Source: Cenarchaeum sp.
GTDB lineage: Archaea > Thermoproteota > Nitrososphaeria > Nitrososphaerales > Nitrosopumilaceae
Reading direction: 5' to 3'
DNA: 64,000 nt
Assembly (NCBI GenBank): GCA_965242695.1
Contig: CBDESU010000001.1
Coordinates: 1,216,001-1,280,000 of the forward strand
In this document: positions 4,792 to 56,879 of the stretch, piece after piece
How positions within the stretch are numbered: position 1 is the stretch's first letter
Layout: every line of letters begins with the position of its first letter
Translations under genes and position numbers: made by a program
Notes under the pieces: model-generated
Told to the model about the DNA's origin: nothing
Database searches by the model: none
Seen by the model: the letters and a program-made list of their open reading frames with translations, nothing else

Positions 4792-4800
4792 CATAAATCC
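4792..4800 (+). promoter_or_regulatory. TATA-like box CATAAATCC
   Basis: 29 nt before ATG 4821. Confidence 0.7.
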
Positions 4801-4820
4801 CGCGCGCGCGGCGCGCCTGC

Positions 4821-39061: not shown

Positions 39062-39073
39062 CGGCGCCCGGCC

Positions 39074-40425: not shown

Positions 40426-40658
40426 CCCATGTTCACCTCCACCTCGATCATGGTCTCCGTCGTGACGATCCCCTTGATCCTCTTGAAGTCGATGATCGCC
40501 GAGTTGATCTCGTCGATCGACCCGTGCAGCAGCACGCACACGTCGGCCCTGCCCGTCACGACCAGCGTGTCCTTGACGGGGCGGCGCTTGCGGCGCAGCA
40601 CGGCGGTCACCTCGTCGACGAGGCCCGGCCCGACCGTCACCATGCACAGCGCCCGCAC
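40419..40658 (-). CDS. Lrp/AsnC ligand-binding (RAM) domain protein
   Basis: VTGRADVCV..IKGIVTTET; GTG ~29 nt after CTTATCTA. Confidence 0.85.
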   Translation of the reverse strand: MRALCMVTVGPGLVDEVTAVLRRKRRPVKDTLVVTGRADVCVLLHGSIDEINSAIIDFKRIKGIVTTETMIEVEVNMGW

Positions 40659-41816: not shown

Positions 41817-43341
41817 CTCCTATTATCGACGACTTGATGTCCTCCATCCTAGCCGCCTCGTCGTGGAGTTCCTCGTGGACCCGGATAAACTCGCCCTCGT
41901 CTATGCCATCGTCCCCCGAGTGCTGTATCTCCCTTGCCGTGCTCCAGCCCCTGTCGTCCATCGAAAAGGAGTAGGGGGCGACCTCCCCGGGGAGCAGGTA
42001 TGCCAGCGGATCGCCAAAAATAGTGCGCTTAGAGTCGTCTGAAAGCTGCCCCGCCTCGAGGCACTTGCTGAACTCCTCAAGCAGGATCTCGCTGTGCGTC
42101 GTGGCAAGTACGTAGAGGCCGGCGCGGACCATTCTTACTATGAATTTGGCAAGCAGTGCCTGGCTCGCCGGATGCAGGTGGGCCTCCGGCTCCTCTATTA
42201 CGAGCAGATCGGACGGCTGCACGGCGTGCTTGAGATACAAGATCAGGGGCGCCAGTTCGGATACCGACGACGATGCGGATTGGATTGGCACGCTGCTCCC
42301 TCTGTACTTGAACACTATTTCCGGAGCCGCGATTTTGGATGCTTTCCGCATGCCGATGCGGCCGCGCAGGATCGATTGCTCCATTTCCTCGCCGAGTGCG
42401 AAAAGCGCCCCCTCCTCCTCCGTCATTTTAACAATGTCGGCCAGGAAATCGACGGTGGTTCCCGGCATGGATCCTGTGCCGGTGTGATCTCCGGCGGCGC
42501 CCGACAGCGACCGGATCGCCCCGTCCAAGACCGTCCTGTAGGCGTTTAGTACGCCCGATCGCGATGCGGGCAGGTAGTACGAGGCCTCCGGCATGTCCGA
42601 AAAAATTTTTCGTGTTATGGGCACATAGCACACCTGAGGCAGATGCCTTCTTAGCTGGTTGTTGGCCATCCAATTGGACATCGTGTACTCAATTGGATCC
42701 TCAGGATCACGCGGCATCCGTGCAAGGGGGGGATCGATGCCCGGCCCCTCGTCTTCGACAAGGGTCTGCACAATTGGCGAGATGGCCCGTATGCTTACGC
42801 CAGTAGTCTTTCCCCACTTCAGCACGGACGCGTGTGATCCGTTGGCAACGTCGATCTGCATCGACTTGCATCCGAACCGGACCAGCCCCTGCGGGCCAGA
42901 GGGCATGTTACGGGTAATTTCGGACGTCAGTCCGTCTGCAAGTATGCTCGTCAGGCAGTGGCGCGCGATAGCGTCCGACATTCGGGCAGGCACGGAGGCC
43001 GACTGGTCTGCGTTGAAGGCGTCGAGTACGGCGCCGAGCCCCGCGTCTATCGATTTTTTGCATGCGGCAAGCGTGCGCATCGAGGCCGGTCCCGGCCCGG
43101 CGTCGAAGCCCGCGGCCGTGCCCGCCGACAAAAGGCGCTTTTCTCTGCCGACGGCCCGGATTAGCGAGTGCGCCGCGGTTGCGGCGTACGACTTGCCCGT
43201 GTTGCCGGGGCCTATGAACACGGTCAGGGGGGCAATCCTGATGGCCGCCTCCCTGACAGGACCGAGGTTTCGCAGTGTCATTCTAAGCCCGGCCTCGCCT
43301 GATCTATCAGGGCGTCGGAGGCGCCGCTTCGTTGTGCTCAC
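41791..43341 (-). CDS. ABC-type (AAA_15/AAA_21-like) ATPase
   Basis: Walker A FIGPGNTGKS, signature SASSSVSEL, Walker B LLVIEEPEAHLHP, H-loop ATTHS. Confidence 0.9.
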   Translation of the reverse strand: MSTTKRRLRRPDRSGEAGLRMTLRNLGPVREAAIRIAPLTVFIGPGNTGKSYAATAAHSLIRAVGREKRLLSAGTAAGFDAGPGPASMRTLAACKKSIDAGLGAVLDAFNADQSASVPARMSDAIARHCLTSILADGLTSEITRNMPSGPQGLVRFGCKSMQIDVANGSHASVLKWGKTTGVSIRAISPIVQTLVEDEGPGIDPPLARMPRDPEDPIEYTMSNWMANNQLRRHLPQVCYVPITRKIFSDMPEASYYLPASRSGVLNAYRTVLDGAIRSLSGAAGDHTGTGSMPGTTVDFLADIVKMTEEEGALFALGEEMEQSILRGRIGMRKASKIAAPEIVFKYRGSSVPIQSASSSVSELAPLILYLKHAVQPSDLLVIEEPEAHLHPASQALLAKFIVRMVRAGLYVLATTHSEILLEEFSKCLEAGQLSDDSKRTIFGDPLAYLLPGEVAPYSFSMDDRGWSTAREIQHSGDDGIDEGEFIRVHEELHDEAARMEDIKSSIIGDAWDDSKA

Positions 43342-43490
43342 GGCGCATCCGCGCGGCGGGGCGCCTTAAGCGTTGCCACAGCGGTCAAGACGGCGCGCGG
43401 AACCAGCGCCGCGCCTGCCCGCCCCGAGCGATGCCAAGGGTCGGGCGGCGCCCCGCCAGGGCGGGCGCGCGGGCGGCGCCCGGGCGCTGA

Positions 43491-46400
43491 TCAGCCGCAC
43501 GAGACCTCGTACGCGACGGTCTGCTCCATGGCGCCCGGCGAGACGCCCGGCGGCAGATCGTCCATGCCGGTCAGGTCGAGCCGGTAGTCGATTGCAAGGG
43601 ACGCGGCCGGCTCGAGCGCATCGCCGCCGGACAGCAGGGGCGATCCGGGCTCGAGCGGGGCGAACCGCCCCTCCCCGCCGCCGCCCGCGGGCGCGGCCAT
43701 GAACGACGTCGCGTTCGCCGGCAGGCCGCCGCTCCACGCCGTCGCGCTGATCGCAACGCCCGCGATCGGCGCGCTGCCCGAATTCGAGAGCATCTGGCGC
43801 CGCGGCTCGCCGGCCTGTCCGGGCCCCGCGCTGCCAAGGTCGAGCATGTCAGACGCCAGCGAGGCGCTGCACGTCGCGGCAGCGTCCGCCCCCGAGGTCT
43901 CGACTATTGCCCACTTGCGCGTCTCCGGCGAGACCGTCCATGTCGAAAAGGTCGCCGGACTGGCCAGGTCGCCGTTGCCGTCGAACGCGATCCCGCCGAG
44001 GGCCCCGCCTGGCAGCCCCGCGGCCGCCAGGCCGTGCAGGTTCGATGCGAACGGGCCGGCCGTCGAGTGGCCGGCCGCGATCGCGCTCCCGAGCAGCAGC
44101 ACTGCATCGTGGGCAGAGTACGCGTACCCTATCCTCGGATCCCCGACGTCGCCTCCGCCTGGCCTGGCCGCAATGGCCGAATCGACGGCGCGCGTCGCCG
44201 CGCTCGGCTCGATGCCGAACACGACGGCCCTCAGGCCCGTCGACAGGGCCAGGTCGAGCGCCGCATCGCCGCCGGTGACGACCGAGCTGCCGGCAAGGTC
44301 CGTCGAGTACCACTGCGCGCCGGCCAGGGCGGGGTACCGCAGGGCCTCGGCGGCCGCGCCGGCGAACGGCGGGTCGAACCCGATGTACAGGACGGCCGCG
44401 CCCCGCTCCGGGTCAGAGGCGGACGCCGCGGACACCATCGCGTTGGCCCTCGCCATTGCGGGCCCCCACCCGCCCGGCTCGATCGAGGCGTCAAACGGCA
44501 CCTTTGGCAGGACCGACCCCGGCGAGAGGCCGTCAAACTCGGCGCGTATCCGCTCGTACGCGGCGTTTCCGTACGCGTCGTCCTGCACGATGGCGACCAC
44601 GTCGCGCGCCCCGCCGCCGGCCATCACCTCGGCGATGCGCGGCGCGCGCAGGTCGTCGTTGGGAGCCATGCGGTACACCGCATCCGGCAGGGCCAGGTCG
44701 GGCGAGAGCGACGAGGGCGAGACAAGGACTAGGCCGGCCTCGCCGGCGTACCCGCGGACGGCCTCTACGCTCGAGCTCGCCGACGGGCCTACCGAGAGCG
44801 GCACGGGGCGCGGATAGTAGCCGGCTCCGAGGATCAGGTCGTCGGACCTGTCGGCGGTCCCGAGATCGTGCAGGGCGAGTAGCGAGCGCTTGGACTCGAC
44901 GGGCTGCCCCTCGTGGACAAAGTTGCGGATGCGGTAGTCGTACCACGCGTCGGCTCTGGCCGGCGCCGCATCAAGCTCCCCGAGCAGGCTCGCGAACGGG
45001 ACGGGGTTGTCGCCCGAGGCGATCGGCGAGACGACGCCGACCCTGTCTGGGTTTGCCCCGTTGGCCTGGACGTGCCCCGTGCGGTTGAGGATGAACGGAT
45101 AGTGCTCCTGCGGGCTGGCAAGCGACCTTATGGCCTGCACGGCCGCATCGGCCCCCTGCGCGTCGATCGCATCCCTCATCGAGGCGATCTGGCTTGCCAG
45201 TATTGGATAGTACCTCGCATCGTCGAGGCCGGTCGCAAGGGCCGACACGGCCGCGAGGGGGTCGGCCAGGCGGATGTCGTGTCGGACGATCTCTAGGGAT
45301 CGGTTCCCGCCCGCCTCGGCCTGGCCGAGGCTGAACCGCACGGCCGCGTCGAGCACGGCCGCGTCGAGCACGACGCCGTCAAAGTAGGGCAGGTCGGTCG
45401 CCGCCAAGAGGGCCCCTACGCGCGACGGGGCCGAGCCGGCAGGCATCGCCGCATCGCCGCCGGCTGCGCCGGCGAGCCTGGACGGATCCGGCTCGTATCC
45501 AGGATAGTAGTTGGCCCGCGCATCGACGGCGCCGGGAGCGGCATCGCTCGCTATCAAGGCTCCCTCGTTCGAGGCGTGCAGCGTGTTGTGGTGGAAGCGG
45601 ACGGCGGGCTGCGCGGCATCGCCGGCCGCCACTTCGACCTCGGAGGCGCCGGCCTCGCACCGCCCGGCGCACACGGACAGCGCGCCGGCGCTCTCCGAGA
45701 TGCGGTTGCCCACGATCACCACGTCCGCCGAGTCGGCCCACACCGAAAGGGCCGGCGCCGCCGCGCCGATCACCGTGTTGTATGCGATGCGGACGTTCGA
45801 CGAGTTCGACGTGACCAGGACGGCGCTCGACCCCGAGCCCTCCACGTGGTTGTGCACGACGCCAAGGCCGCGCGCGCCCGACGCCTGCACCGCCGCCCCC
45901 CTCAGGTCGAACATGTAGTTTGACGAGACCAGCGAGTCGGCCACCTGCACTCCGGACGGCATCTGCGCCGGCATGCCGAGCCGCACCGCCGGGGGCGGCG
46001 GAGCGTCGCCGGGGGCGGCGGCCCCGATGTCGCGGAACGTGTTTCCCGACACGTCCACGTCGGATGCGGGCGGCGCCGGCGCCGTGCCGTTGGCGGCCGC
46101 GGCAGGGGCCGCCGACACGGCCGCGGCGCACGTGCCGTCGAACGTGTTGTTCAGTACGGAGACCGTCCCGGCCCCCGCGCCGCCGGGCCGCGCCTCCACC
46201 GTGACGACGGCGGCGCCGCCGGGGCCGCCCGCCGGGCATGCGATATCGCGAAATACGAGGCCCGTGAGGGCCACGGGGCCGCCCGGGCCCTGCCGGACGA
46301 CTACGCTCGAGTTGCCCGTGAGGACGGCCGCGCCCGGCGGGTCGGACGCGAGCGTGAGCGGCTTGTCGATCGTGACGGACACGTTGGCGTACGTTCCGGG

Positions 46401-46556
46401 AGCGACGAGGACGGTGCTGCCCGCATCGGCGCCGTCCACCTGTCCCTGTATCGTCGCGGCGCCACCTCCAGCGTCCTGGGCATAGGCGGCGTTCGGGGCG
46501 CATGCGATCGCAACGGCGGCCGCAAGCGCCAAGATCGCGCCCGGTGCACTGCGCAT
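43491..46556 (-). CDS. large secreted protein: beta-helix + Cache-like insert + type 1 periplasmic-binding (LivJ-like) domain
   Basis: Signal peptide MRSAPGAILALAAAVAIACAPNAAYAQ; VAPGTY and xxxNxF beta-helix repeats; VGPSASS..LVSPSS..YRMAPND..DDAYG..GALGGIAFDGNGD; start trimmed using upstream TTTTAA. Confidence 0.8.
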   Translation of the reverse strand: MRSAPGAILALAAAVAIACAPNAAYAQDAGGGAATIQGQVDGADAGSTVLVAPGTYANVSVTIDKPLTLASDPPGAAVLTGNSSVVVRQGPGGPVALTGLVFRDIACPAGGPGGAAVVTVEARPGGAGAGTVSVLNNTFDGTCAAAVSAAPAAAANGTAPAPPASDVDVSGNTFRDIGAAAPGDAPPPPAVRLGMPAQMPSGVQVADSLVSSNYMFDLRGAAVQASGARGLGVVHNHVEGSGSSAVLVTSNSSNVRIAYNTVIGAAAPALSVWADSADVVIVGNRISESAGALSVCAGRCEAGASEVEVAAGDAAQPAVRFHHNTLHASNEGALIASDAAPGAVDARANYYPGYEPDPSRLAGAAGGDAAMPAGSAPSRVGALLAATDLPYFDGVVLDAAVLDAAVRFSLGQAEAGGNRSLEIVRHDIRLADPLAAVSALATGLDDARYYPILASQIASMRDAIDAQGADAAVQAIRSLASPQEHYPFILNRTGHVQANGANPDRVGVVSPIASGDNPVPFASLLGELDAAPARADAWYDYRIRNFVHEGQPVESKRSLLALHDLGTADRSDDLILGAGYYPRPVPLSVGPSASSSVEAVRGYAGEAGLVLVSPSSLSPDLALPDAVYRMAPNDDLRAPRIAEVMAGGGARDVVAIVQDDAYGNAAYERIRAEFDGLSPGSVLPKVPFDASIEPGGWGPAMARANAMVSAASASDPERGAAVLYIGFDPPFAGAAAEALRYPALAGAQWYSTDLAGSSVVTGGDAALDLALSTGLRAVVFGIEPSAATRAVDSAIAARPGGGDVGDPRIGYAYSAHDAVLLLGSAIAAGHSTAGPFASNLHGLAAAGLPGGALGGIAFDGNGDLASPATFSTWTVSPETRKWAIVETSGADAAATCSASLASDMLDLGSAGPGQAGEPRRQMLSNSGSAPIAGVAISATAWSGGLPANATSFMAAPAGGGGEGRFAPLEPGSPLLSGGDALEPAASLAIDYRLDLTGMDDLPPGVSPGAMEQTVAYEVSCG

Positions 46557-47179
46557 GCAAGGCGGCGAACCGCGTTGCGTTAAAAGAGTTGCGCCGCCCC
46601 CACATGCCGGGTGGGGGCGTGCGTGTGTGCGCCCTTCCCCCCAACCGCGCAGCCGCCAGCGCCTACACCGCTCCCGGATGCCCGCGTTGTTCGTCGCCTC
46701 TTGAGCGCGGAGGCGAACAGCCGGGCACGAGAGGACGCCGCAGGCGCCCGCTGAGGGGGTCGCAGGCGCCCGTCTCACGGAGGCTCCATGACCCTGATGC
46801 GCGTTCGGGCCCATCCAGCTGAGTGGAGTCGCAGGCGCCCGTCTCACGAAGGCGGCATGCCCCGTCAGTGGACGGCGTTGCGTCCCGCGACGCGGCTTGC
46901 CATCGGTAGCGCGGCATGTCGCCGCCTTGCGCGGCATCCCGCACCGGCGCTGGCACGCACTACGCCTGCCGTCGTCGCCACGACTGCCGATTCCAGTCCA
47001 GGTCTGAGCCCAGTCCGTCCGCGATTGGACACCATGCACGTCACTGTAAGATTTTTGGAAAAATATGCTCGTAGACAGCAAATTTAGCGCCCAGCGTCAT
47101 GCCATCCAGCCGGAAGTTTGACGGGAAAGCGGCACACCGCGACCGAATGTTTATGAGTGCGGCAGGGGCCGGCTCTCCA

Positions 47180-47374
47180 ATGGACAAGAGTCCCAAGTGC
47201 CCGTACTGTGGCAAGAGTGCATGGGACGGCCCATTTCAGCTCGGCATGGCGGCATCGAGGGGAAAGGACGACAAGCCCACGAGCGACATAACGGAGGGGG
47301 AGAGCGGCATTTGTTTGCTGAAGTCTTGGGCATGCACCTCATGCGGTCATGTCAGGCTAAACAAGGAAGCATAG
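47180..47374 (+). CDS. small zinc-ribbon protein
   Basis: KCPYCG...WACTSCGHV; TTTATG ~30 nt upstream. Confidence 0.7.
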   Translation: MDKSPKCPYCGKSAWDGPFQLGMAASRGKDDKPTSDITEGESGICLLKSWACTSCGHVRLNKEA

Positions 47375-47407
47375 CGGGCAGCCATGCAGCTGTCGGCGAT
47401 GCCAAGA

Positions 47408-47511
47408 GCTGCATCAGGGGCGCGCCTCGTTAGGCGGTCACTTGCGGTTCCGCGCCTGGGAAGAGTTCGACGTCGACGCTGCATCAGGGGCGCGCCTCGT
47501 TAGGCGGTCAC
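47408..47511. repeat. 34-bp perfect direct repeat pair separated by 36 bp
   Basis: gctgcatcaggggcgcgcctcgttaggcggtcac at 47408 and 47478. Confidence 0.9.
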
Positions 47512-47597
47512 CTGGTAAGAGTTATCGGCCTTGTGACGTGCGCCGCGGCGGGGGATCGTAGGGGGCCGCGAGCATGAGCAACCCGCGCCGCCCCTCC

Positions 47598-50500
47598 TCA
47601 AGGACGACCTCGAGGGCGCCGCGCGGGGCGCGGTCGGCCGCCAGAGGGCACGGCGGCCCACCACTTCCAAGTGCCTCGTAGCGCACCGGCGTGTGCCTGA
47701 CGGCCGCGGCTGCCCTCTGGCGACAGAGGCGCAGCGACAAAAGTCATCGCCTCAAATGAGTAGAATTCCTGCGCGGCATCGGGATCGGCAAGCAGGGCAT
47801 CGGCCGATCCGGCATCCCCGAGGCGGTCGGCGTCCAGCCCAAGCGGAGGCGAATCGCACTGCGGCGAGATTTCACGCAGCCTAGGGGCCGCCGCCGCCAG
47901 GCGACTCATGAGGAACTCGGCCCTTTCGCGCTCCGTTTTGGCAGCGCAGCGCGCTAGAAGGGGTGCGGCGGCTCCAAAGGAATTAGACATGCACCGTACT
48001 GCAGCGCGGCTCACCGCCTCGCATGCGCCGCCTGCAGGCTCCGGCATGCCGTTCAAGAGATCTGCCAGTCCCAGGAGCATGCGCGCCGAGGCAACGGCCT
48101 CGGACTTTGCCGCAACCAGCCGCGACGGGTGCGCACCGCCCCCTGCTTTTGTATCGCAGGAAGTGCGTTGATCCGGCGATGGGCAGGCGCTGGATCCCAT
48201 CCCCCCGAGAGCCAGATCCGAACAGAGTTGGAGCGCAGGTGCATCATCATCATCCCGGATACCCCTCAATTTTCGAACGGTGCTGGCGGCATGTAGGACA
48301 GGCAGGTGCGACTCGCACACCAAGTTGCCGAAATCGGTGGGCCTGTAGATGTGGCCGGCGCTCGTGCCGCGGGCATCGCGGACCACAAGATCCAGTGCAA
48401 CCAGTTCGTCTAGCAACCCACGGATCGTCTCGTCCAGTGCCGCCTTGTCCGAGGCGCTCGACGATGCCCAGAACCATGTCGCAGATATGCGGGACGCCAT
48501 GTCGCCCGGCGTGGCCCCACCCAGCTCCTTGACCATGCGGATAAGGTGCAACGCGATGCGGGGGCGTAGATCATCCCGACTGCCGCCCAGTCCGGAAGTC
48601 ACCGAGGGGGCGACATCCCACAGGCTGCGGCGCAGCACATCGTACTCGGCCTGTGATGCGGCAGCTACGATTGTCTCGCCCTTCCTGTCAAGGCCCGCCC
48701 TGCCCGCCATTTCCGTCGCCCGCGCGTACTCGAAGGCGGTGGGAATTTCTCCGCTGGCGGCGGGACGGCACAGTAGCACCGTCTTGAACGGCGAGGGGGC
48801 ATCCCTTGTGCAGGGGACGGAGGACGACACGAGGGCGCTGATCGCACCGCCTTCGACCCCCCTCATGACTGCTTTTCTGAACGCCGGCGGCAGTCGTTCG
48901 TCGTCAAACGCGACGCCCGATGCAAGCGGCGATTCGGATCCCGTGCCGCAGTACTCGATGCCGGCCCCGATCGCGGGCCGCCCCACAAGGCTTTGCCGCA
49001 AGGCCGCTTTTTTCCCAGCGGCTTCCCCCATGTCCAGGTCGTCGCCCTCGATGCGACGCAGTTGCGATGCGACTTCGCTGGCAAATCCGATCACATCCGA
49101 GCCTGGGGGGACGGAGATCAGCACGGGAGAGTCGTCAACCACGGCCCTCCTGGCAAATCTTGCGCACAGGGAGGCGGCATCCGGCCTTCCGGCGTCCCCG
49201 CCACCGCAACGCAGGTCGCGCGGAAGCGGCTCGTGGCTTCCGGGCGCCGATCTGAAGTACAGCATTCCGTTGTGGCAGACAGATTCGCGGGTGCCGATCA
49301 CGGCGCATCCCGGCCGCCCCTCCGCCCCGCACGCATCAACCACCTTTGCCCCGAGCCAAGAAGCCATTTTTTTGGCGACGTCCGCCGAGGCCAGGGTTGT
49401 GAGCGCCACGATCTGTGGGCAGGAGGATCCTGCCGACCGCAGGCGTGCAATGAGCATCTCCAGGTCCAGGGCGCCGTTCCCACCACAATCTTCGTCCAAG
49501 TCGCAGGCCTCGTCGATAATGACCGCAGCCAGGTCGGACACCTCGATCGACCCTGCAGACAGCCGCGTGCCCAGCTCTTCGTACGTGGCGACAAAATGCC
49601 CGCCGCTGCCGAGGCCGTCCCGATGCAAGCCGTGCGGGCCGTCATCCCGCCGCTCATCGCCGCCGCCACGGTCGGCCCCGATCAGCCCGACGATCCCGCC
49701 GTAGGCCCGTTCGACGGCCTGCTCGTTGGCAGCCAAGTACGCCACACGCCCCCCGCCGTTTGACGGGGCGGCGAGGCACAGGCACGAAAGCAGGGCCTTT
49801 TCGTGGCCGGCCGGCAGCCGGCATACCATGCTTGCCCGCCCGATCAGTCCTGCCTCGACTGCCGCCTCCTCGGGCGGCGTTAGCGCGTACCTGCCCGACA
49901 TCCACAGTGCCGCTCCCATACCGTCCGCCAAGCCCAGCCGGGACACCGAGTGATCGTACGTGGCTTCGACAAGCCTCAGGTACAGGCTCACCATGAACCC
50001 CAGGGGCGGATCGGGAAAGTACCGCAGCAGGTCATTGTAGAACCGGCCCGCCCTCTCGGCCAGGTCCTTGGCGCTTCCGTCGGAACCGCGGCGGCCGGGC
50101 GCCCCGAAAAAGCGGCAGAGGAGGTTGAGCAGGGCAAAAAAGAGCTTGTAGTCATCGGGCGAGTCGTGGTCAATCCCCCTTTCAGGGGATGCCTTGGCAT
50201 GCAGCCACCTGCTCGTCTCGTCGAGTGCCGACGCGAGGAGGCCGCTCCCGCCGCCCACGCCAAGCAGCGCCAGGCCCTCCACCAGGCGCCGCGAATGCGC
50301 CGGCGAGCCCACAATGTACTCGAATTCGCCCGAGTATCTTTGCTCAAGCAGCCGGTACATGCGCACCGCATCGCACCTCATTCGCGCCATATCGTAGCAC
50401 AGGGCCGAGCATATCGTTGCGTAGAATTCGTCGCCGCGCGGCAGCTCGCCGGCATCGGCCATATCCTCGAGTGCCACGGCGGCCTCCTCGTACGACGCTC

Positions 50501-50624
50501 TGTTCCCGGTCAAGGTCCCGTCAATGATCGACTGCATCGCATCCGTGTGCCTGTCTGCAGGGGCCATCGTATCCAAGTCAGCAGTACCTCCCAACCATCC
50601 TGACGGTCGCATCATGGAGACCAT
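47598..50624 (-). CDS. Ski2/Hel308-like SF2 helicase homolog with degenerate motifs (HamB-like)
   Basis: Ordered remnants PAGHEKA, VATYEEL, IIDEAC, ALTT, GVAFDD, EMAGRAG, PTDFG; probable start ATG 50567. Confidence 0.75.
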   Translation of the reverse strand: MVSMMRPSGWLGGTADLDTMAPADRHTDAMQSIIDGTLTGNRASYEEAAVALEDMADAGELPRGDEFYATICSALCYDMARMRCDAVRMYRLLEQRYSGEFEYIVGSPAHSRRLVEGLALLGVGGGSGLLASALDETSRWLHAKASPERGIDHDSPDDYKLFFALLNLLCRFFGAPGRRGSDGSAKDLAERAGRFYNDLLRYFPDPPLGFMVSLYLRLVEATYDHSVSRLGLADGMGAALWMSGRYALTPPEEAAVEAGLIGRASMVCRLPAGHEKALLSCLCLAAPSNGGGRVAYLAANEQAVERAYGGIVGLIGADRGGGDERRDDGPHGLHRDGLGSGGHFVATYEELGTRLSAGSIEVSDLAAVIIDEACDLDEDCGGNGALDLEMLIARLRSAGSSCPQIVALTTLASADVAKKMASWLGAKVVDACGAEGRPGCAVIGTRESVCHNGMLYFRSAPGSHEPLPRDLRCGGGDAGRPDAASLCARFARRAVVDDSPVLISVPPGSDVIGFASEVASQLRRIEGDDLDMGEAAGKKAALRQSLVGRPAIGAGIEYCGTGSESPLASGVAFDDERLPPAFRKAVMRGVEGGAISALVSSSVPCTRDAPSPFKTVLLCRPAASGEIPTAFEYARATEMAGRAGLDRKGETIVAAASQAEYDVLRRSLWDVAPSVTSGLGGSRDDLRPRIALHLIRMVKELGGATPGDMASRISATWFWASSSASDKAALDETIRGLLDELVALDLVVRDARGTSAGHIYRPTDFGNLVCESHLPVLHAASTVRKLRGIRDDDDAPALQLCSDLALGGMGSSACPSPDQRTSCDTKAGGGAHPSRLVAAKSEAVASARMLLGLADLLNGMPEPAGGACEAVSRAAVRCMSNSFGAAAPLLARCAAKTERERAEFLMSRLAAAAPRLREISPQCDSPPLGLDADRLGDAGSADALLADPDAAQEFYSFEAMTFVAAPLSPEGSRGRQAHAGALRGTWKWWAAVPSGGRPRPARRPRGRP

Positions 50625-51396
50625 CGATGCTGGTTATGACGGCCTCTACAGGGTTCGCTATGCCTCGCAGCATGCCAGGGCCGAGGCTGCCGCGGATCGA
50701 CCCCGCATCGACCCCGTGCCGCGCGTCGAGTGCCACTACCGCGTTGGCCGATACGCTCCATTCGGACAGGGCCTTTTTCAGGACCTCCGCCATGCGGAGC
50801 AGGGCGGCTGTCCCGGCGGGGGACAGGTGCGTTGCGCCGCCGAGCCTTGCCGCCTCGACACAGCGCCTGCGCAGCCACAGGAGCCATTCCCGCGTGTGGC
50901 GATCGGGGCTCTGCCGGAACGCGGCGGCGATCGCTGCCGATACGCCGGACGAAGCGCCCCTTCCGGGGCGCAGCGCATGCAGGTGCTTTGACTCGTTGAC
51001 CGAAAGCATGCCCCCCTTGCGCATGACAATGTCGATCCCCTTGGAGGCGCTAGTGCCCGCATGCCGCCACTTCGAGTAGAACGGCTCGCCGTAGCCACAC
51101 GCTTCCAGGACCGCTTCGGCCACGATCTCTCCTATGAGCCCCTTCAGATCGGCCGCAGAGATGCCGCGCCGATCTCCCTCTATTGGCATCCGGCCTAGGA
51201 AGAAGGACACCTCGTCTTCCGCATTCGCCTCGCTGCGCATGGTCCGCGTTGCGAGGGCTTCCTCCACTAGCGATCCTAGCCAATCCCCTATGCTGCGGCC
51301 ATCCCTCCTTGCCGCACCGCCTACATGCACCACCATAAGCCGGCCGTCTAGGCAGTGTCCGCTACCGATCGTGCCGCATGCAAGGAATGCTCCCAC
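50578..51396 (-). CDS. HamA/DUF1837-like PD-(D/E)XK nuclease
   Basis: KGLIGEIVAE..YSKWR..SKGIDIV..LSVNESKH; GTG 51396 follows AT-rich CATACATTA. Confidence 0.7.
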   Translation of the reverse strand: MGAFLACGTIGSGHCLDGRLMVVHVGGAARRDGRSIGDWLGSLVEEALATRTMRSEANAEDEVSFFLGRMPIEGDRRGISAADLKGLIGEIVAEAVLEACGYGEPFYSKWRHAGTSASKGIDIVMRKGGMLSVNESKHLHALRPGRGASSGVSAAIAAAFRQSPDRHTREWLLWLRRRCVEAARLGGATHLSPAGTAALLRMAEVLKKALSEWSVSANAVVALDARHGVDAGSIRGSLGPGMLRGIANPVEAVITSIDGLHDATVRMVGRYC

Positions 51397-52034
51397 GCCT
51401 AGCCCTGACAGCGGCCTTCTAATGTATGTTGCCCCAGCCGCAGGCGTGCGCTGACCGCCCGTCGCATGCTCCAGACCAGGGCAACACCATCGGCCCCTCG
51501 CATGGCACGCAACCCCCGCACGTGCTGGCCGCGCAGAACCCGCAGGCACCTGCAATCCGACGGCTTCTGCCCCTTTTTTCCTGAACGGGAGGCAGCGGCG
51601 CATCCGCGGGCCCGACCACGATCTCGCGTGCGATATTCTGCCCTGCCCGCATGCGTGAGCAGTCTTCAAGGACGGCTCCCGAGCCGCCGGTGCACCCGAC
51701 GGGGAGGCTGTGAAAATCGGGCGCAGGCCATGACATGAATCTCGCGGCCGCATGCTGCCCGTCGCCTGCCGGCCGGCGCGCCTGTCCATTTCACCGCGTC
51801 TCCCGCAGGTGGCGCGACGGCGCAGGTGGCGCCACACAGCTGCAACCCCAAGGCAAAAAAAAAGCCTTCGGCGAGTCTTGGGAGCCGCGCCCGTCGGGGG
51901 CCGGCACCCCTACAGGCGTGCGCAGTGTCATGGCCGCATGCCGCCCGGCCGCACCGGGAGGCGCCCTACCCGCCCATGCGAGCAGGGGCGCGGCGCAGGC
52001 GCACGCTGTCGTCCCCGCCGGTCGGAGGGCGCCC

Positions 52035-52427
52035 CTAGTCGAGCGCGTCGGCATCCTGCGAGCGGGCCTCTTCAAGGTACGCGCGGCGCTCGGCGTTCAC
52101 CCGATCCTGGTCGATGCGCATGTCGTCGTCGACTATGACAATGCTGTTGTTTGAAAAAGAATCGGTTCGCGGACGCGCCCTTGTCTTGGAGCGCGCCCGC
52201 GGCCGCTTCGTCGTAGATCCGGAGGCCGCCTTTGGCTTTGCCTTCGGCTTGGCCTTGGGCTTTGCCGCGGCCTTTGCCTTGGGCTTTGCCGCGGCCTTTG
52301 CCTTCGGCTTGGCCTTGGGCTTTGCCGCGGCCTTTGCCTTCGGCTTGGCCTTGGGCTTTGCCTTGGCCTTGGGTTTGGTGGCGGTCTTGGCCTTCTTGGC
52401 CCGGCCGCCCGCCTTGGCTGCTGCCAT
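52035..52427 (-). CDS. histone H1-like Lys/Ala/Pro-rich protein with acidic C-terminal domain
   Basis: (KPKAKAAA)n then IVIVDDDMRIDQD..AERRAYLEEARSQ; CTTAAAT 30 nt upstream. Confidence 0.8.
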   Translation of the reverse strand: MAAAKAGGRAKKAKTATKPKAKAKPKAKPKAKAAAKPKAKPKAKAAAKPKAKAAAKPKAKPKAKPKAASGSTTKRPRARSKTRARPRTDSFSNNSIVIVDDDMRIDQDRVNAERRAYLEEARSQDADALD

Positions 52428-52496
52428 TGTTGCGCGGCAAAATCGCGTGGATTTAAGGCTAGCGGGGGCAGCGATCGCAGGCAAGTTGCGGCCGGT

Positions 52497-52566
52497 CGGC
52501 GGCGCGGTCAGGGGCGGCGGCGCGGTCAGGGGCGGCGGCGCGGTCAGGGGCGGCGGCGCGGGCAGG
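52497..52566. repeat. 18-bp tandem repeat x3.8, intergenic
   Basis: cggcggcgcggtcagggg. Confidence 0.85.
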
Positions 52567-52643
52567 CCCGGCGGCGGGACGGGCCGGCCCCCGCCCCCGC
52601 CCCCACGCCGCGGCGCGCCCCTGGCGCGCCCGGTTTCCCTCCG

Positions 52644-53054
52644 ATGCCCGGCGGCGCCAGCGTCGGGGGCGCCGCAAAGGCAATTAAGTGCGCGGGGCGG
52701 GGGCGGTGCACGGCGCCACACGGGTATCGCGACAGGATCTTCATTCGCAAGGACATCATACTCACCCTTGCAGAGTACGGAAGGCTCAACGCCACGAACC
52801 TGGCATCGAGTTGCGGCCTGAACATGCTAAAGCACAGGGGCATACTCGATGACCTCGAGGAAAAGGGCATCATCGGTTCGTCCGTCGAGAAGGGCAGGGG
52901 AAGGGACGTCACGTACTACCACGTGACCGAAAAGGGCCTAGAGTTCTGCTCGCGCGTGCTCGACCCGTACGAGGAGATGTTCCCAAGGAGGGGCAGGGGC
53001 GGGAGGGGTTTTAATCCCGGAGGGGGTGGCGACGGTGGGAGGGAGCGGGAATGA
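52644..53054 (+). CDS. winged-helix transcriptional regulator (COG3432/HTH_45-like)
   Basis: YRDRIFIRKDII..CGLN..LDDLEEKGII..YHVTEKG; true start may be at 52710 (ACG). Confidence 0.85.
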   Translation: MPGGASVGGAAKAIKCAGRGRCTAPHGYRDRIFIRKDIILTLAEYGRLNATNLASSCGLNMLKHRGILDDLEEKGIIGSSVEKGRGRDVTYYHVTEKGLEFCSRVLDPYEEMFPRRGRGGRGFNPGGGGDGGRERE

Positions 53055-54118
53055 CGCAGGCTGACGGGGGCGGGCAGCGCGGCGGCGGGACCGAGGGCGG
53101 GTCCGGCCGCGCCGGCATCACCGAGTCCATCGACAGCCTGATCGCGCACATGAACGCAAGCCGGCGCCTGTACATGGTCCTCATCGCCGCCGCGTTCGTC
53201 ATCGGGCCGGTCTCGGCGGTGTTTGCCGCCGTCGTTCTCCTCCCCGGGATAGCCACCGAGGTAGGCCCCGGCTACGAGCTGAGCGTGGAGTTCGACGAGG
53301 TCACCGGCGACATGTGGGAGTACTACGGCCTGCCGGCCAACCACACGATCGGCACGTACAGCGGCCCGTTCACCGGCAAGATGCTCGGCCACCACACCGA
53401 CGTGGACGGCAACCTGATAACAGGCGCGGGCATGGAGGACGGCGAGTACGGCGTGTTCTACGGCGAGTTCGTCGGCGACTTCGGCGGCGAGCGCGCCGTT
53501 CTGACCGGCGAGATGCTCGGCGAGTTCACCGGCGAGGTGCACAGCATCGCCGACGAGGGCAGGATGCCGGTGACCGACACGGACGACCACCTATACTACG
53601 TCTCGATCGGCGTGTACGAGGGCAGGTTCGACGGCGACTTTCTCGGCATGTTCTTCGGGGCGGCCAACCAGACGGCGCTCGAGGCGGTCGTCGACGGGGG
53701 CAACTTTGGCGAGTACCTGGACGACGGCGCCGCCGGGTCGTACAGCGTCTCGTACGTGCCGGACGGGGAGATCGCGGGGCTGGACGGCGGCGGCGGGGAC
53801 GAAGACTACGAGCCGCGCTTTGCCGCGTACGGGGTCGACGGGGACGGCGTGCACAGGCACACGGACATTACGGCCGCCGTCACGGCCCTCGTCGTGGCTG
53901 TAGCCGGCGCATCGGCCGTCGTCCTGTACGTCGGGATGCGCGAGGCAAGGTTCTACAGGAAGTGGGGCGAGCGGTTCGAGAGGTACGTCAGGACAAGGGA
54001 AGAGGCAGACAGGGAGATGCGCCTCGAGCTGGGCGGCGGAGATGACGAGAACAGGGATGCGGCGGCCGGGGAGGCCACGGCGGCGGCCGGGGAGGCCGAT
54101 GCCGGCAGGCGGCAGTAG
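53051..54118 (+). CDS. membrane protein with a large acidic Gly/aromatic-rich loop
   Basis: Hydrophobic segments at both ends; loop rich in GEFxG motifs; ATGA overlap with the regulator. Confidence 0.8.
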   Translation: MTQADGGGQRGGGTEGGSGRAGITESIDSLIAHMNASRRLYMVLIAAAFVIGPVSAVFAAVVLLPGIATEVGPGYELSVEFDEVTGDMWEYYGLPANHTIGTYSGPFTGKMLGHHTDVDGNLITGAGMEDGEYGVFYGEFVGDFGGERAVLTGEMLGEFTGEVHSIADEGRMPVTDTDDHLYYVSIGVYEGRFDGDFLGMFFGAANQTALEAVVDGGNFGEYLDDGAAGSYSVSYVPDGEIAGLDGGGGDEDYEPRFAAYGVDGDGVHRHTDITAAVTALVVAVAGASAVVLYVGMREARFYRKWGERFERYVRTREEADREMRLELGGGDDENRDAAAGEATAAAGEADAGRRQ

Positions 54119-54124
54119 CGTATA

Positions 54125-54201
54125 TGGTGCCAGGGGCGGGATTTGAACGCGCGACAGCTCGGTCTTCAGCCGAGTGCTCTCCCGGGCTGAGCTACCCTGG
54201 C
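54125..54201 (-). tRNA. tRNA-Phe (GAA), CCA encoded
   Basis: GCCAGGG/CCCTGGC acceptor stem, anticodon arm CTCGG-CTGAAGA-CCGAG, TTCAAAT loop, ACCA end. Confidence 0.96.
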
Positions 54202-54227
54202 ACGGCGCGCCCCGGCCCCGATCCCGA

Positions 54228-54776
54228 TTAAAGGGTATCTTTGGGGCGCCACGGCACGTCGGGCACGCCGGCGCGCGCGTTGGCCGCGCGCGCCATCGCA
54301 AACAGCAGGTCCGAGAGGCGGTTGACATACGGCAGGCAGCAGGGGCCGACGTGCCCGTCGATCGACGCAATGTGCGTCTCGGCGCGGCGCACGGCCGCGC
54401 GCGCAAGGTGCAGCGCGGCCGCGGCGCGCGATCCCCCGGGCAGGACGAACGAGGAGAGCGGCTCGAGCGACTCGTCTAGCGCATCAATGTCGCGCTCGAG
54501 CCGATCCACGTCGCCGGCGGACATACGGACCGGCGCGGCGCTGCCGGGGTCGGGATCGGACAGGTCGGCGCCGACCGAGAACAGCTCGGACTGGAGCCGG
54601 GCCGCGATGGCGGCAAGCGGGCCGCCGGCATCGAGCTCGCATGCGGCCAGGCCGAGCGCGCAGTTGGCCTCGTCGATCGCGCCGTACGCCATTATGCGCG
54701 CGTCCGACTTTGCAACGCGCCGCCCGCCCTGCAGCCCCGTCTCTCCCCCGTCGCCCGTCCTCGTGTAGATTTTCAC
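54228..54776 (-). CDS. pduO: ATP:cob(I)alamin adenosyltransferase, PduO type
   Basis: KIYTRTGDGGETGL, AYGAIDEAN, FVLPGG, RRAE, NRLSDLLF. Confidence 0.95.
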   Translation of the reverse strand: MKIYTRTGDGGETGLQGGRRVAKSDARIMAYGAIDEANCALGLAACELDAGGPLAAIAARLQSELFSVGADLSDPDPGSAAPVRMSAGDVDRLERDIDALDESLEPLSSFVLPGGSRAAAALHLARAAVRRAETHIASIDGHVGPCCLPYVNRLSDLLFAMARAANARAGVPDVPWRPKDTL

Positions 54777-54891
54777 GGCGGCGGGGCGGCGGGCGGCCCC
54801 GTATATCTGCGGCGCAGGGCGCGCCCTGCATGCGCCCGCCTCCGCGCCCGGGGGGCGCAGGGGGCAAGCGCCGCGGCAGGAGCGCGGCGCC

Positions 54892-54990
54892 CTGCCCGGC
54901 GGCCCGCCCCGGCCCCGCCGCCATTTGCGGCCCCGCCGGCCACCCTGCGCAGGTCGTTTCTGCCCGGCGGCCCGCCCCGGCCCCGCCGCC
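54892..54990. repeat. 31-bp direct repeat pair separated by 37 bp
   Basis: ctgcccggcggcccgccccggccccgccgcc at 54892 and 54960. Confidence 0.85.
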
Positions 54991-54991
54991 G

Positions 54992-56473
54992 CTATCCCAT
55001 CAGCAGGTACAGCCAGAGCGGAACGACAGCCGTCCTGTCCCCGATCAGGCCCGTCGTGTCGCGCGAGACGGCCACCGACAGCGGCGGGTCAAAGCGGCGC
55101 GAAAATCGCGACAGGCCGTCCAGATCCTGCTTGTCTACCCGCCGCCTGTACTTGATCTCTATCGGGACGGGGCCCCCGCGCAGCCTTATGACCTGGTCGA
55201 CCTCGGCCTTGCCGCCGTCGTGCCAGTGGTACGGCATGGTATTGGCCGATGAGGGGGCAAGCAGCCTCCACAGCAGCCGCGTGTGCTGGCCGGCCACCGT
55301 CTCGGCCATCATCCCCGTCTCCGCGGGATCGTCGACTTCGTCGGGCCCCGCCGGATGCGCCGTGACGTTGCGCAGACCGACGTCGTTTATGTACACCTTG
55401 TGCGCCTTGCGGTATCGTATTGCAGGGCTGGGGGTGTAAAATCTCGAGTACGACGCAAGGAACGCATGCTCCAAGAGGGCGCAGTACAGGTCGACGGTGT
55501 TTTTTTTGACCCCGAGATCGCTCGACATTCCGTCCTTGTTGATCATGTGCGGGGACCTCCATGAGAGTTGGTAAAAGAGGGCGTCGAGGACGTCTAGGTG
55601 CCTCACTCCGCCGACCCTCGACACGTCCTTGTAGAGGGCGAGGTCCCTGTGCATTCTGATCGTCTCGGCCTTGTCTGCATGGTCCGCTCTGCCGGCCGCC
55701 TTTGGGTATCCCCCGTACAGCATGTATTCGGAAAGGTGCCGCAGGAGATCGTCCTTGGCCGCAGCAAGGTCGAGCGAGGCGCGCCGGACGCCCTCGTAGA
55801 AGGGCCGCGCATCGCCCGCCGCGGCAGACTCGCCGAGGCTCTTGCGCATGCCCGATCCGGCCGCCTCCAGGGCCTCGGCATGCCCGGGATCCCTGAACTC
55901 GACATAGTCGGCAAACCTCATAGTGGGCACCGTCTGGTGCCATACGCGCCCTACGAGTGACTCGGACGAGCCGGCAAATATGTCAGCGCTCGACGATCCA
56001 GACACGACGAATTTTATTGGATGCGACTGGTCCACAATGTTCTTGACTGTGCGCTGCCAGTTGTGGACCAGGTGAATCTCGTCGAGGATGGCATGCACCT
56101 TCCCCCCAAGCTCGTAGAGTGACTCGCCGAGGATGTCGCTAACATACAGCTCAAGCAGGCGCAGCATGTTTCCCTCTTCAGGGACCAGGCCGCGCGCATC
56201 AAAGGTGAGGAACAGTATCCGCTTGGGATCAGTGCCGGACGAGAGAAGATGCTCAATCAGCTGGTACAGCATGGTCGTCTTGCCGACCTGCCGTGCGCCC
56301 AGGATGCCTTGGACGGGCCACTTGCCCAAGTGGCCCACCATGACATGGTAGTCGCGCAGCTTGAACGGGTGCTGCAGTTGCGACGGCATTACTCTCGTCC
56401 TCCACCACGGGTTCAATTGCCGCATAGCCTGCAGCAGTCTTTCGTCGTCAACGCTGTCGCCGTTAAGAGCCAT
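54992..56473 (-). CDS. AAA_14 + DUF4143 ATP-binding protein (COG1373-like)
   Basis: NPWW, GARQVGKTT, ILDEIH, SGSS, SLVGR, GGYP, EVD..PIEIKY. Confidence 0.92.
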   Translation of the reverse strand: MALNGDSVDDERLLQAMRQLNPWWRTRVMPSQLQHPFKLRDYHVMVGHLGKWPVQGILGARQVGKTTMLYQLIEHLLSSGTDPKRILFLTFDARGLVPEEGNMLRLLELYVSDILGESLYELGGKVHAILDEIHLVHNWQRTVKNIVDQSHPIKFVVSGSSSADIFAGSSESLVGRVWHQTVPTMRFADYVEFRDPGHAEALEAAGSGMRKSLGESAAAGDARPFYEGVRRASLDLAAAKDDLLRHLSEYMLYGGYPKAAGRADHADKAETIRMHRDLALYKDVSRVGGVRHLDVLDALFYQLSWRSPHMINKDGMSSDLGVKKNTVDLYCALLEHAFLASYSRFYTPSPAIRYRKAHKVYINDVGLRNVTAHPAGPDEVDDPAETGMMAETVAGQHTRLLWRLLAPSSANTMPYHWHDGGKAEVDQVIRLRGGPVPIEIKYRRRVDKQDLDGLSRFSRRFDPPLSVAVSRDTTGLIGDRTAVVPLWLYLLMG

Positions 56474-56686
56474 ACTGCATGCCCGACCCCATAGCAGTAT
56501 TTAAGTCCTCTATGAAGTCTTTAACAACGAAATAGCTTGTCTGTATGAAGAGTTTAACAGCAAGTATTTTATACCATACTATAGGCTTAATAATGCCAAT
56601 AATAGCTTATATAAAGTCTTAATCGTAGCCATAAACAAAGTTTACAACATTCTTACCAGGATTTGGGCGGATTTGAAATCACATGG

Positions 56687-56783
56687 GGCTTAAAACTGGG
56701 TATTTATGCCCTTATCAATGGCTTAAAACTGGGCATTTATGCCCTTATCAATGGCTTAAAACTGGGCATTTATGCCCTTATCA
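56687..56783. repeat. 33-bp tandem repeat x3 in an AT-rich intergenic region
   Basis: ggcttaaaactggg(t/c)atttatgcccttatcaat at 56687, 56720 and 56753. Confidence 0.95.
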
Positions 56784-56879
56784 GGCTCATACACAGTATT
56801 TTCACCGGCCCGCTGTTCGCAGGCCCGACGCCGATCCCACGTCAAAACCCGTTATATGGCCGGATTGCGGCGGCAATCC

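Follow-up and report, generated by a model that had tools for sequence, protein, structure and literature searches.

The question raised by this locus is whether a Hachiman-type defence pair can persist in a genome when every nucleotide-handling motif of its helicase partner has been altered. The locus lies within a 64,000-nucleotide stretch of Cenarchaeum sp. DNA (GenBank assembly GCA_965242695.1, contig CBDESU010000001.1; the whole stretch is referred to as the window and positions are counted from its first letter) and consists of two adjacent genes, designated A and B. An earlier reading of the letters and open reading frames (ORFs), referred to as the sequence-only reading, had proposed a Hachiman-like pair in which a catalytically dead helicase is kept at full length, possibly as an ATP-independent scaffold, inhibitor or decoy sensor. 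In the accepted Hachiman mechanism, ATP-driven ratcheting of the helicase releases the nuclease. Hachiman of E. coli ECOR31 (HamAB; PDB 8vx9, 8vxa and 8vxy) is reported to pair HamA, a DUF1837 nuclease, with HamB, a Ski2-like helicase (PMC12278908). The analysis described here favours, with a probability of roughly 0.55, a divergent archaeal Hachiman-type two-gene module in which A is the nuclease effector and B is a non-catalytic keeper or sensor derived from an active HamB/Hel308-type helicase.

Layout of the A-B locus

The genome carrying the window comprises 3.89 Mb across two contigs, and its ribosomal proteins L3 and S3 match archaeal equivalogs. The two genes and a putative upstream element were placed as follows (GC3, GC1 and GC2 denote GC content at the third, first and second codon positions):

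50578-51396, minus strand: gene A, 272 amino acids, GTG start, based on the ORF and its GC3 pattern
47598-50567 (stop codon included), minus strand: gene B, 989 amino acids from M20
51415-51429, minus strand: possible archaeal promoter element ACATACATTAGAAGG, read from the sequence, 19-33 nt upstream of the start codon of A

These sizes agree with the proteins of about 272 and 990 amino acids in the sequence-only reading. The first in-frame ATG of gene B is at 50624 and would give a protein of 1008 amino acids overlapping gene A; M20 (50567) was favoured as the start because the homologs begin near it in the alignment. Gene A stops 10 nt ahead of M20 and both genes lie on the minus strand, in the order hamA then hamB. 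The pattern GC3 > GC1 > GC2 in the frames of both genes supports coding, with a GC3 of 0.75 for the pair compared to 0.86-0.92 in flanking genes, and the signal weakens across the final ~200 codons of B. A 419-amino acid frame extending gene A up to 51837 was rejected as non-coding because the GC3 pattern is lost above ~51400. Over-extended gene calls in four homologs of A translate a similar upstream string (TYIRG / THFRR), which suggests that the DNA upstream of the A start may be conserved.

Domain anatomy of B

Pfam detected no domain in B, with no match to DEAD or Helicase_C. The PADLOC HamB profile matched at E 0.0011, B alone matched Hel308 at E 8e-6 (the HMMER alignment runs to residue 736), and the profile of the B family matched Hel308 at E 1e-7 and HamB chain 8vx9_B at E 0.0026. 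The NCBIfam Hel308 equivalog NF002654 gave 63.8 bits, short of its cut-off of 887, over residues 229-431 only. Foldseek searches with the low-confidence model of B returned Hel308, the PolQ helicase domain, Brr2 and HamB (8vxa_A) at E 1e-10 to 1e-7. B is a Ski2/Hel308-type core protein of HamB/Hel308 derivation, and the N-terminal domain of a same-genus paralog (genome G002), homologous to that of B, aligns within positions 68-720 of the PADLOC HamB profile. The parts of B, with model confidence as predicted local distance difference test (pLDDT) where relevant, are:

49929-50567, minus strand: residues 20-232, all-helical N-terminal domain (predicted helices), counterpart of the HamB NAH bundle
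49329-49907, minus strand: residues 240-432, RecA1-like domain, pLDDT ~50-80 by block except low at 311-341
49863-49880, minus strand: motif Q (PPE), RecA1-like domain
49794-49814, minus strand: motif I (PAGHEKA), RecA1-like domain
49713-49739, minus strand: motif Ia (YLAANEQAV), RecA1-like domain
49503-49514, minus strand: motif II (DEAC), RecA1-like domain
49395-49403, minus strand: motif III (LTT), RecA1-like domain
48585-49328, minus strand: residues 433-680, RecA2-like region, pLDDT mostly <50
48900-48917, minus strand: motif IVa (GVAFDD), RecA2-like region
48786-48830, minus strand: motif V (VSSSVPCTRDAPSPF), RecA2-like region
48690-48713, minus strand: motif VI (EMAGRAGL), RecA2-like region
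47880-48569, minus strand: residues 686-915, winged-helix-like and helical (ratchet/CAH-like) region, from the Hel308 alignment to 736 and the model
47601-47879, minus strand: residues 916-1008, poorly conserved tail, pLDDT <35, GC3 signal fading

All of the motif strings quoted in the sequence-only reading (PAGHEKA, YLAANEQAV, DEAC, LTT, GVAFDD, VSSSVPCTRDAPSPF and EMAGRAGL) were found in B at these computed positions, and their assignment to altered superfamily 2 (SF2) motifs was confirmed by the HMMER alignment to Hel308 and by the family alignment described below. The Hel308-like winged helix which it considered retained may be present: the alignment reaches residue 736 and pLDDT by 10-residue block is ~50-87 over 690-800 (mostly >70 in 690-790), <50 over 807-836 and 72-84 over 840-910, in a model that is poor overall. 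No OB-like C-terminal domain was detected in B, and the tail is probably disordered.

Replacement of the helicase motifs in the B clade

Ten close homologs of B were identified (45-95% identity, all metagenomic), of which seven are 1002-1051 amino acids long and three (P0003, P0004 and P0012) are truncated or frame-changing. A profile search over 1.84 billion representatives gave 325 proteins at E<=1e-3 and 37 at E<=1e-30, and its matches include ~20 full-length proteins of 940-1000 amino acids which share the N-terminal domain. Motifs were compared in an alignment of 34 rows, made up of 10 rows of the close clade and 24 others (19 representatives, four same-genus paralogs and the HamB encoded elsewhere in the window's own genome):

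Motif Q: Gln in 0/10 clade rows (Glu in 9/10); Gln in 24/24 other rows
Motif I: P[AG]xx[ED]K[APSQ] in the clade, GK[ST] in 0/10; GK[ST] in 21/24 other rows
Motif Ia: YL[AV]A in the clade; YLVPT in other rows
Motif II: DEAC in the clade (DEAS once); mostly DExH/Q/D in other rows
Motif III: [LF]T[TAS] in the clade; SG/SA in other rows
Motif IVa: AFDD[EKG][RG][LM]P in the clade, HHAG-type in 0/10; [YF]HHAGLP in other rows
Motif V: SSSVP....SPF in the clade, T.T..G.N.P-type in 0/10; T.T.E.GVN.P in other rows
Motif VI: EMAGRxGR in 7/10 clade rows (GL in the window, GGGGP in P0007); mostly AGRAGR in other rows

The Gln to Glu change in the Q motif of B is additional to those in the sequence-only reading. 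The P-loop Gly before the Lys is replaced by Glu or Asp in nine of the ten clade rows (P0011 keeps G-K), and at the Mg-binding Thr/Ser position the clade has Ala, Pro, Ser or Gln, with Ser only in P0004 (1/10). Summed over the motif windows, net charge is -4.0 in the clade versus +0.2 in 21 canonical rows. ATP hydrolysis by B has probably been lost, because the clade no longer has the Gln that reads adenine, the Gly of the P-loop, the Thr/Ser that binds Mg or motif V.

In a maximum-likelihood tree of 34 rows (without the truncated P0003, P0004, P0052 and P0058 and without P0012, and with four Hel308-like rows as the outgroup), the B clade is monophyletic (Shimodaira-Hasegawa-like approximate likelihood ratio test 100). 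Its stem measures 1.36 changes per site, and it branches from within canonical-motif rows (supports 99 and 98), with terminal branches of 0.3-0.5 that are no longer than those in canonical clades. Pairwise identity among six non-redundant full-length clade rows is highest in the N-terminal domain (0.65), followed by RecA1 (0.58), RecA2 (0.49-0.53), the winged-helix region (0.51), the helical region after it (0.44) and the tail (0.23), and the altered motif windows reach 0.58-0.84 versus 0.51 for the whole protein. The B clade descends from canonical-motif forms; a single episode replaced its motifs Q, I, Ia, II, III, IVa and V, and the new set has been kept ever since. Neutral decay confined to the window genome next to relatives with canonical motifs, which would have told against the sequence-only reading, does not describe the close clade: 10/10 rows share the alterations, they form one monophyletic group with a long stem, and conservation in the altered motifs exceeds that of the whole protein. 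Two further rows, P0041 and locus L021 of G002, degenerate independently of the clade.

Gene A encodes a predicted HamA-fold nuclease

A PDB sequence search with A gave a best E-value of only 0.32. An AlphaFold model of A built from an 18-row alignment reached a pLDDT of 76.4 and a predicted template modelling (TM) score of 0.78. The top three PDB matches of this model in Foldseek were all HamA chains (8vx9_A, 8vxy_A and 8zue_A; E 1.2e-4 to 2.2e-3) with TM scores of 0.46-0.50, 8vx9_A being the best (E 1.2e-4), and the fourth match was at E 0.16. VIA-align, which does not depend on Foldseek, ranked HamA first over 48,161 chains (Z 12.1, root mean square deviation 4.5, 217/245 residues aligned) and again second (DUF1837 domain of PDB 8zue, Z 11.4), with all lower matches at Z<=8.0 and confined to a helical hairpin of ~50 residues. 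Among the ESM Atlas feature neighbours of A, 28 of 30 are PF08878 clusters (top score 0.95).

Seventeen homologs of A were identified (49-94% identity, all metagenomic), and residues E90, E94, K109, W110, D122, E135, K137 and H138 are invariant in 19/19 aligned relatives, an alignment which takes in two same-genus A-like proteins. The putative active site is made up of:

51115-51132, minus strand: G89-E90..E94, G-E..E motif
51031-51039, minus strand: G120-I-D122, Asp ~30 residues after G-E..E
50986-50994, minus strand: E135-S-K137, E-x-K motif

The nuclease strings quoted in the sequence-only reading (GEIVAE, KWR, GID and ESK) were all present in A at the computed positions. Residues reported as essential in S. 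thermophilus HamA are G89, D90, E93, D127, E147 and K149 (PMC13064477), and E. coli HamA is reported to carry a D-E(X)K motif (PMC12278908). The pattern G-E..E / D / E-x-K of A parallels both; the residue equivalence is putative, drawn from this parallel and a non-significant hhalign alignment. The nuclease of A looks intact, because its catalytic residues are invariant and their pattern parallels the essential residues of HamA. On the modelled fold and the gene context, which are the grounds for its membership, A is a predicted HamA-fold PD-(D/E)xK-type nuclease.

Predicted A-B complex

In E. coli, HamA is reported to dock onto the N-terminal helical bundle of HamB via three patches (30-63, 102-117 and 159-199; PMC12278908). 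Residues 20-440 of B were modelled with A, using unpaired alignments for each protein and three controls. An ipSAE score of 0.85 was obtained compared to 0.28 for the best of the three controls, a mark reached by 116/157 solved complexes and by 2/215 mismatched pairs. The runs agreed on at least 96% of contacts, with a pLDDT of at least 84 for the partner. The predicted interface joins B 23-38, 62, 138-171 and 191-213 with A 54-75, 113-120 and 165-185, and these A patches resemble the three of E. coli HamA. The prediction supports binding of A to the N-terminal domain of B.

Related genes in the genus

The B protein family was found in 3/401 genomes of the taxonomic family, all in the genus of the window and with several copies per genome, and within the 401 genomes the close B clade was found in the window's genome only. 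Searches for DNA relatives of the A-B locus gave 313 pattern matches in genome contigs and 353 in metagenome contigs, none of which was confirmed in either set. The nearest outgroups of the B clade in the tree are three canonical-motif paralogs from the genus:

G002 L023:4433-7360
G002 L020:2875-5802
G004 L022:3390-7127

These resemble B in the N-terminal domain, length and domain order. Unlike B, they keep GxGK[ST], DExH/D, HHAG, T.T..G.N.P and GRAGR and are recognised by Pfam (DEAD and Helicase_C) and by PADLOC (HamB, E 1e-22 to 1e-34, one alignment spanning the N-terminal domain). In G002, hmmsearch places an A-like gene immediately before two of the three copies (E 3.5e-30 and 2.4e-21). 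The wider family is a Hachiman-type pair, because PADLOC recognises these same-genus copies as HamB and two of them follow an A-like gene. The helicase core of a G002 paralog is nearer to archaeal Hel308 (1e-42) than to E. coli HamB (6e-23). The third G002 copy (L021, C1:199000-208500; ORF 2660-6346, plus strand) reads GAGRS and ADGID and has motif VI deleted. It has no Pfam domain, no A-like gene precedes it, and it is probably a copy in decay.

An active paralog elsewhere was also considered, and a second Hachiman is present in the window's genome (G000):

C1:761554-766040 (L007 5552-9196 and 9156-10040), minus strand: Hachiman genes detectable by Pfam and PADLOC

The HamB of this locus (1214 amino acids, with DEAD, Helicase_C and HIRAN domains) is itself altered, with Lys to Arg in Walker A (GSGRM), DDGH at motif II and an eroded motif V, so that a Pfam-detectable system exists in the genome but not with canonical motifs. 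A paralog 49% identical to it (G000 C1:188011-191577) has canonical SSGKT/DEGH and an internal TAG, and the copies in G004 read SSGKA/DEGH and GSGKA/DECR. Loss of HamB ATPase motifs seems recurrent in the genus, because the HamB of the window's genome and its genus paralogs range from canonical to eroded; such recurrence could reflect relaxed selection in an expanded repertoire of defence systems, or a general trend away from ATP hydrolysis.

Two stand-alone paralogs of the B N-terminal domain (~230-270 amino acids, 34-35% identical to B) were also observed in the genome:

G000 C2:915000-915629 (L002 ORF 1360-2178)
G000 C1:748685-749287 (L003 ORF 1423-2118)

They are not beside defence genes. 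Similar short proteins among the database matches include P0051, P0056 and P0060, and two more are found in G004; these could be remnants or free-standing HamA binders. Separate proteins of ~710 amino acids in related genomes match only the RecA1-like part of the B profile and are probably Hel308.

Interpretation and alternative explanations

In the favoured reading, A would act as the effector, a HamA-fold PD-(D/E)xK nuclease whose catalytic set is intact. The ancestor of B would have been an active HamB/Hel308-type helicase whose motifs were swapped across the whole clade, in one burst, for a more acidic set, and B has most likely lost both ATP hydrolysis and movement along DNA. The N-terminal helical domain of B would still hold A, as HamB holds HamA, and B would keep or sense the nuclease without any catalysis of its own. 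Something besides ATP-driven ratcheting would then have to release or activate A; candidate triggers are a viral protein or other ligand bound in the remodelled acidic cleft, the disappearance of B, or a nucleotide that is bound but not hydrolysed. We infer the role of the pair in defence, the loss of ATPase activity and the nature of the trigger.

Several observations weigh against this reading. A had no match among Pfam families at E<=1 or among PADLOC families, the HamA profile included; PF08878 matched none of 18 members of the A family at E<=10; the A-family profile recovered no HamA chain from the PDB; and hhalign of the A family gave a probability of 0.7% with the Pfam-positive HamA of the same genome and 0.2% with a 12-row alignment of that protein's relatives. 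The sequence-only reading of a Hachiman-like pair thus stands on the fold of A and on the family and context of B, not on A's sequence profile, and of the two profile checks it had suggested only that of B against HamB gave a match. Hidden Markov model (HMM)-based defence finders miss this archaeal branch because A has no match and B only one at E 0.001. The fold of A comes from one of five models, the others having a pLDDT of 36-43, and the model of B has a mean pLDDT of 48. The complex score shows likeness rather than that the window copy binds, because the HamAB complex was already solved. The clade comprises just 10 B and 17 A sequences, and adjacency of A and B is known from the window genome and two G002 loci and from none of the 10 B or 17 A homologs. 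The Walker A Lys (K276) and D371-E372 of motif II are invariant in the clade, R642 is conserved and the motif VI Arg-x-x-Arg is kept in 7/10 rows; nucleotide binding, and even hydrolysis, may persist because K276, D371-E372 and R642 are conserved. That the helicase is catalytically dead is therefore suggested by the rewritten motifs, but not by the Walker A Lys, the motif II Asp-Glu and most motif VI Arg residues, which survive.

Further points on the same side come from near-identical strains, copies of 47400-51600 being present in sponge metagenome runs X6, X7 and X8 (two studies) with 1.5-3.4% nucleotide differences; a fourth run, X5, is identical to the window over the parts covered. X6 (61 differences, ~98.5% identity) has 1-nt deletions at 49910 and 49686 in B, X7 has one at 49914 in B, and X8 (138 differences, ~96.6% identity) has 1-nt deletions at 48560 in B and 51311 in A. 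Placed on the window sequence, these would stop B at residue 248 (X6 and X7) or 738 (X8) and A at residue 36. Codon effects were counted for 40 of 189 variant rows, 39 of them inside B and all of these X6 differences; the 39 comprise 13 synonymous and 26 nonsynonymous changes, a synonymous share equal to the 0.317 expected under neutrality (binomial P = 0.47). A joint in X8 that would skip 50273-51508 was discounted, with only 24 letters per side. Breakage of the pair may recur in close relatives, a pattern common among costly defence genes, or the deletions may be contig errors. In either case these frameshifts lower confidence in current selection on the window copy and leave the deep conservation of the clade unaffected. 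The proposal that B is kept full-length fits the uninterrupted window ORF and the seven full-length homologs, but not the contigs of the strains, with frames broken in B of three and in A of one.

Such breakage would also be expected of a decaying relic, a Hachiman-type system without function in this lineage in which the altered motifs are damage and the window frames are not yet broken. The 26 differences private to X6 among those counted in B (5 synonymous : 21 nonsynonymous) point the same way, as do the erosion of other HamB-type genes of the genus (G002 L021, the GSGRM/DDGH protein of the same genome and its paralog with an internal TAG), the three truncated or frame-changing homologs out of ten and the unconserved tail of B. 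We nevertheless consider a relic unlikely, if a serious candidate, as damage does not account for the same replacement motifs in 10/10 relatives at 45-57% identity, conserved above the rest of the protein, nor for changes placed on one long stem and followed by ordinary branch lengths. Seven B homologs remain full length, the catalytic residues of A and the N-terminal domain of B are strongly conserved, the 13 counted differences common to X6 and X8 are 8 synonymous : 5 nonsynonymous, and recent strain breakage is equally expected of a costly but functional defence gene.

The surviving residues could also mean that B is still an NTP-dependent motor or switch, with a non-canonical pocket that binds and perhaps slowly hydrolyses nucleotide and regulates A much as HamB does. 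The invariant Walker A Lys and motif II Asp-Glu, R-x-x-R in 7/10 and the G-K of P0011 speak for this, and the S. thermophilus nuclease is reported to respond chiefly to ATP binding, with hydrolysis contributing less to its stimulation (PMC13064477). However, the pocket changes occur jointly (Gln to Glu in motif Q and P-loop Gly to Glu/Asp, each in 9/10, with the Mg-binding Thr/Ser replaced except for the Ser of P0004), motif V is lost and the cleft is acidified, and in S. thermophilus HamB the single changes K275A, D375A and T606A (motifs I, II and V) are each reported to abolish immunity (PMC13064477), which makes an NTP-driven B quite unlikely. A housekeeping DNA-repair pair, formed by an archaeal Hel308 derivative and a partner nuclease, is suggested by the helicase cores lying nearer to Hel308 than to E. 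coli HamB, both in the G002 paralog (1e-42 versus 6e-23) and in the B profile (1e-7 versus 0.0026). It is nonetheless very improbable: the distribution is not that of a housekeeping gene, because the family is multi-copy and confined to one genus (3/401 genomes), related genomes have the separate ~710-amino acid proteins that are probably Hel308, the GC3 of the pair is below that of flanking genes, and an N-terminal helical domain with a HamA-fold partner is a hallmark of Hachiman as reported for E. coli (PMC12278908). A bolder version of the favoured reading is an ATP-independent Hachiman that arose from canonical HamB within one archaeal genus, in which the core became an acidic, nucleic acid-like sensor or decoy surface. 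The N-terminal domain would keep A locked, and contact of the dead cleft with a viral protein that binds DNA or counters defence, or with some other ligand, would end the lock. A motor protein would thereby have been turned to guard/decoy logic; this version is regarded as improbable.

Neighbourhood of the pair

The stretch that contains the A-B pair is variable; it is bounded by a ribosomal-protein cluster and an acetyl-CoA synthetase gene, and other defence-like ATPases are encoded nearby. No integrase or provirus signal was found around the pair, and PHROGs gave no match for A or neighbouring ORFs. Features of this region are:

41791-43341, minus strand: AAA_15/AAA_21 ATPase, 516 amino acids (PADLOC PD-T4-4_A E 1e-30; also AriA/GajA/Old-like)
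43491-47081, minus strand: 1196-amino acid protein between B and the AAA_15 module, with Beta_helix and ANF_receptor (ligand-binding) matches, GC3 0.86-0.93
47408-47441 and 47478-47511: exact 34-nt repeat copies downstream of B, 70 nt apart, nowhere else in the genome
52035-52721, minus strand: ORF directly upstream of A, no family match
54992-56473, minus strand: AAA_14 and DUF4143 ATPase (PADLOC candidate PDC-S01 E 2e-41), low-GC patch of 0.53-0.64

The AAA_15/AAA_21 module (41358-43341, minus strand) includes a 153-amino acid unannotated ORF downstream of the ATPase and forms a GC patch of 0.56-0.59 in a region of ~0.68. This is probably a defence module in its own right that was acquired horizontally. 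The ATPase was considered as a third component supplying ATPase activity to the pair and was treated as a separate system, because it lies 4 kb away beyond the gene for the 1196-amino acid protein and in a patch of different GC. That intervening protein is probably surface-exposed or secreted.

The repeat downstream of B resembles a unit of clustered regularly interspaced short palindromic repeats (CRISPR; two copies of 37 nt with a 33-nt spacer), a reading that was rejected because the repeat occurs only twice in the genome. The spacer between B and the next gene (47099-47514) also holds a plus-strand ORF of 91 amino acids with two CxxC pairs (Zn-ribbon-like), and contigs of related strains end in it. 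An integration site at tRNA-Phe (54125-54201) was rejected, with no att-like direct repeat in 39000-57500. Within ORF 52035-52721, a repeat of 12-nt period (52204-52407) encodes a Lys/Ala/Pro-rich stretch (AKPKAK...) and an 18-nt repeat lies at 52494-52583; the ORF may encode a basic DNA-binding protein or may be no gene at all. Three head-to-tail, AT-richer 33-nt units (91-100% identical) are found at 56687-56785, just upstream of a TPR-repeat gene (56760-58133). Further away, the ORF map has consecutive plus-strand gene pairs of 474 and 202 amino acids (12429-14449) and of 474 and 217 amino acids (14690-16710), which suggests a tandem duplication.

Comparison with known systems

The window pair shares with Hachiman two co-oriented genes with the nuclease first, the predicted HamA fold and D..ExK-type catalytic residues of A, and in B the order of an N-terminal helical bundle, two RecA-like domains and a winged-helix/helical region, the bundle serving as docking domain in the modelled complex. 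It differs in that A is unseen by the Pfam PF08878 and PADLOC HamA models, so that the HMM definition of HamA excludes it, and in that B does not have intact HamB motifs, Q, I, Ia, III, IVa and V being replaced and II reading DEAC compared to DEGH in E. coli; the pair also sits in an archaeal host, unlike that of E. coli ECOR31. A D431A change at the helicase site of ECOR31 HamB is reported to abolish defence (PMC12278908), and ATP-site mutants of HamB in E. coli K-12 are reported to be without ATPase and without defence (PMC11914072). No description of an inactive HamB in Hachiman was found in the main texts of the literature searched.

A natural variant of the opposite kind is Type I-B Hachiman, or AbpAB, of E. 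coli K-12 (PDB 8zue), in which the DUF1837 domain is reported to be dead and an added Cap4 nuclease compensates for it, with the HamB ATPase still essential (PMC11914072). Both AbpAB and the window pair would have one catalytic partner dead at its active site yet retained structurally; it is the nuclease domain in AbpAB and the degenerate helicase in the window pair, where no compensating ATPase is seen alongside.

Hel308/Hjm (PDB 2p6r, 2va8, 2zj2 and 9b15) provides the best sequence and Foldseek matches to the core of B and shares its RecA1-RecA2-winged helix-ratchet order. It is different in being ~700 amino acids long, without the N-terminal helical domain, with all motifs intact and with no HamA-type partner, whereas B has 989-1008 amino acids including an extra N-terminal domain of ~230. 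The inactive Ski2-like C-terminal cassette of Brr2 and other pseudohelicases have lost hydrolysis, yet they persist as conserved modules for protein binding or regulation. The Foldseek matches of B include Brr2 chains, and Utp25 is labelled a 'pseudohelicase' by title; both are eukaryotic RNA-processing factors without a nuclease partner, and the analogy to B is one of principle and not of kinship.

The HamB ATP site is reported as essential in all three biochemically studied Hachiman systems (PMC12278908, PMC11914072 and PMC13064477). If B is indeed not a motor, a helicase scaffold can be reused as a regulator without motor function, and the clade would constitute a natural 'separation-of-function' allele for the roles of HamB beyond ATP hydrolysis, the mirror image of the known variant with a dead HamA nuclease.

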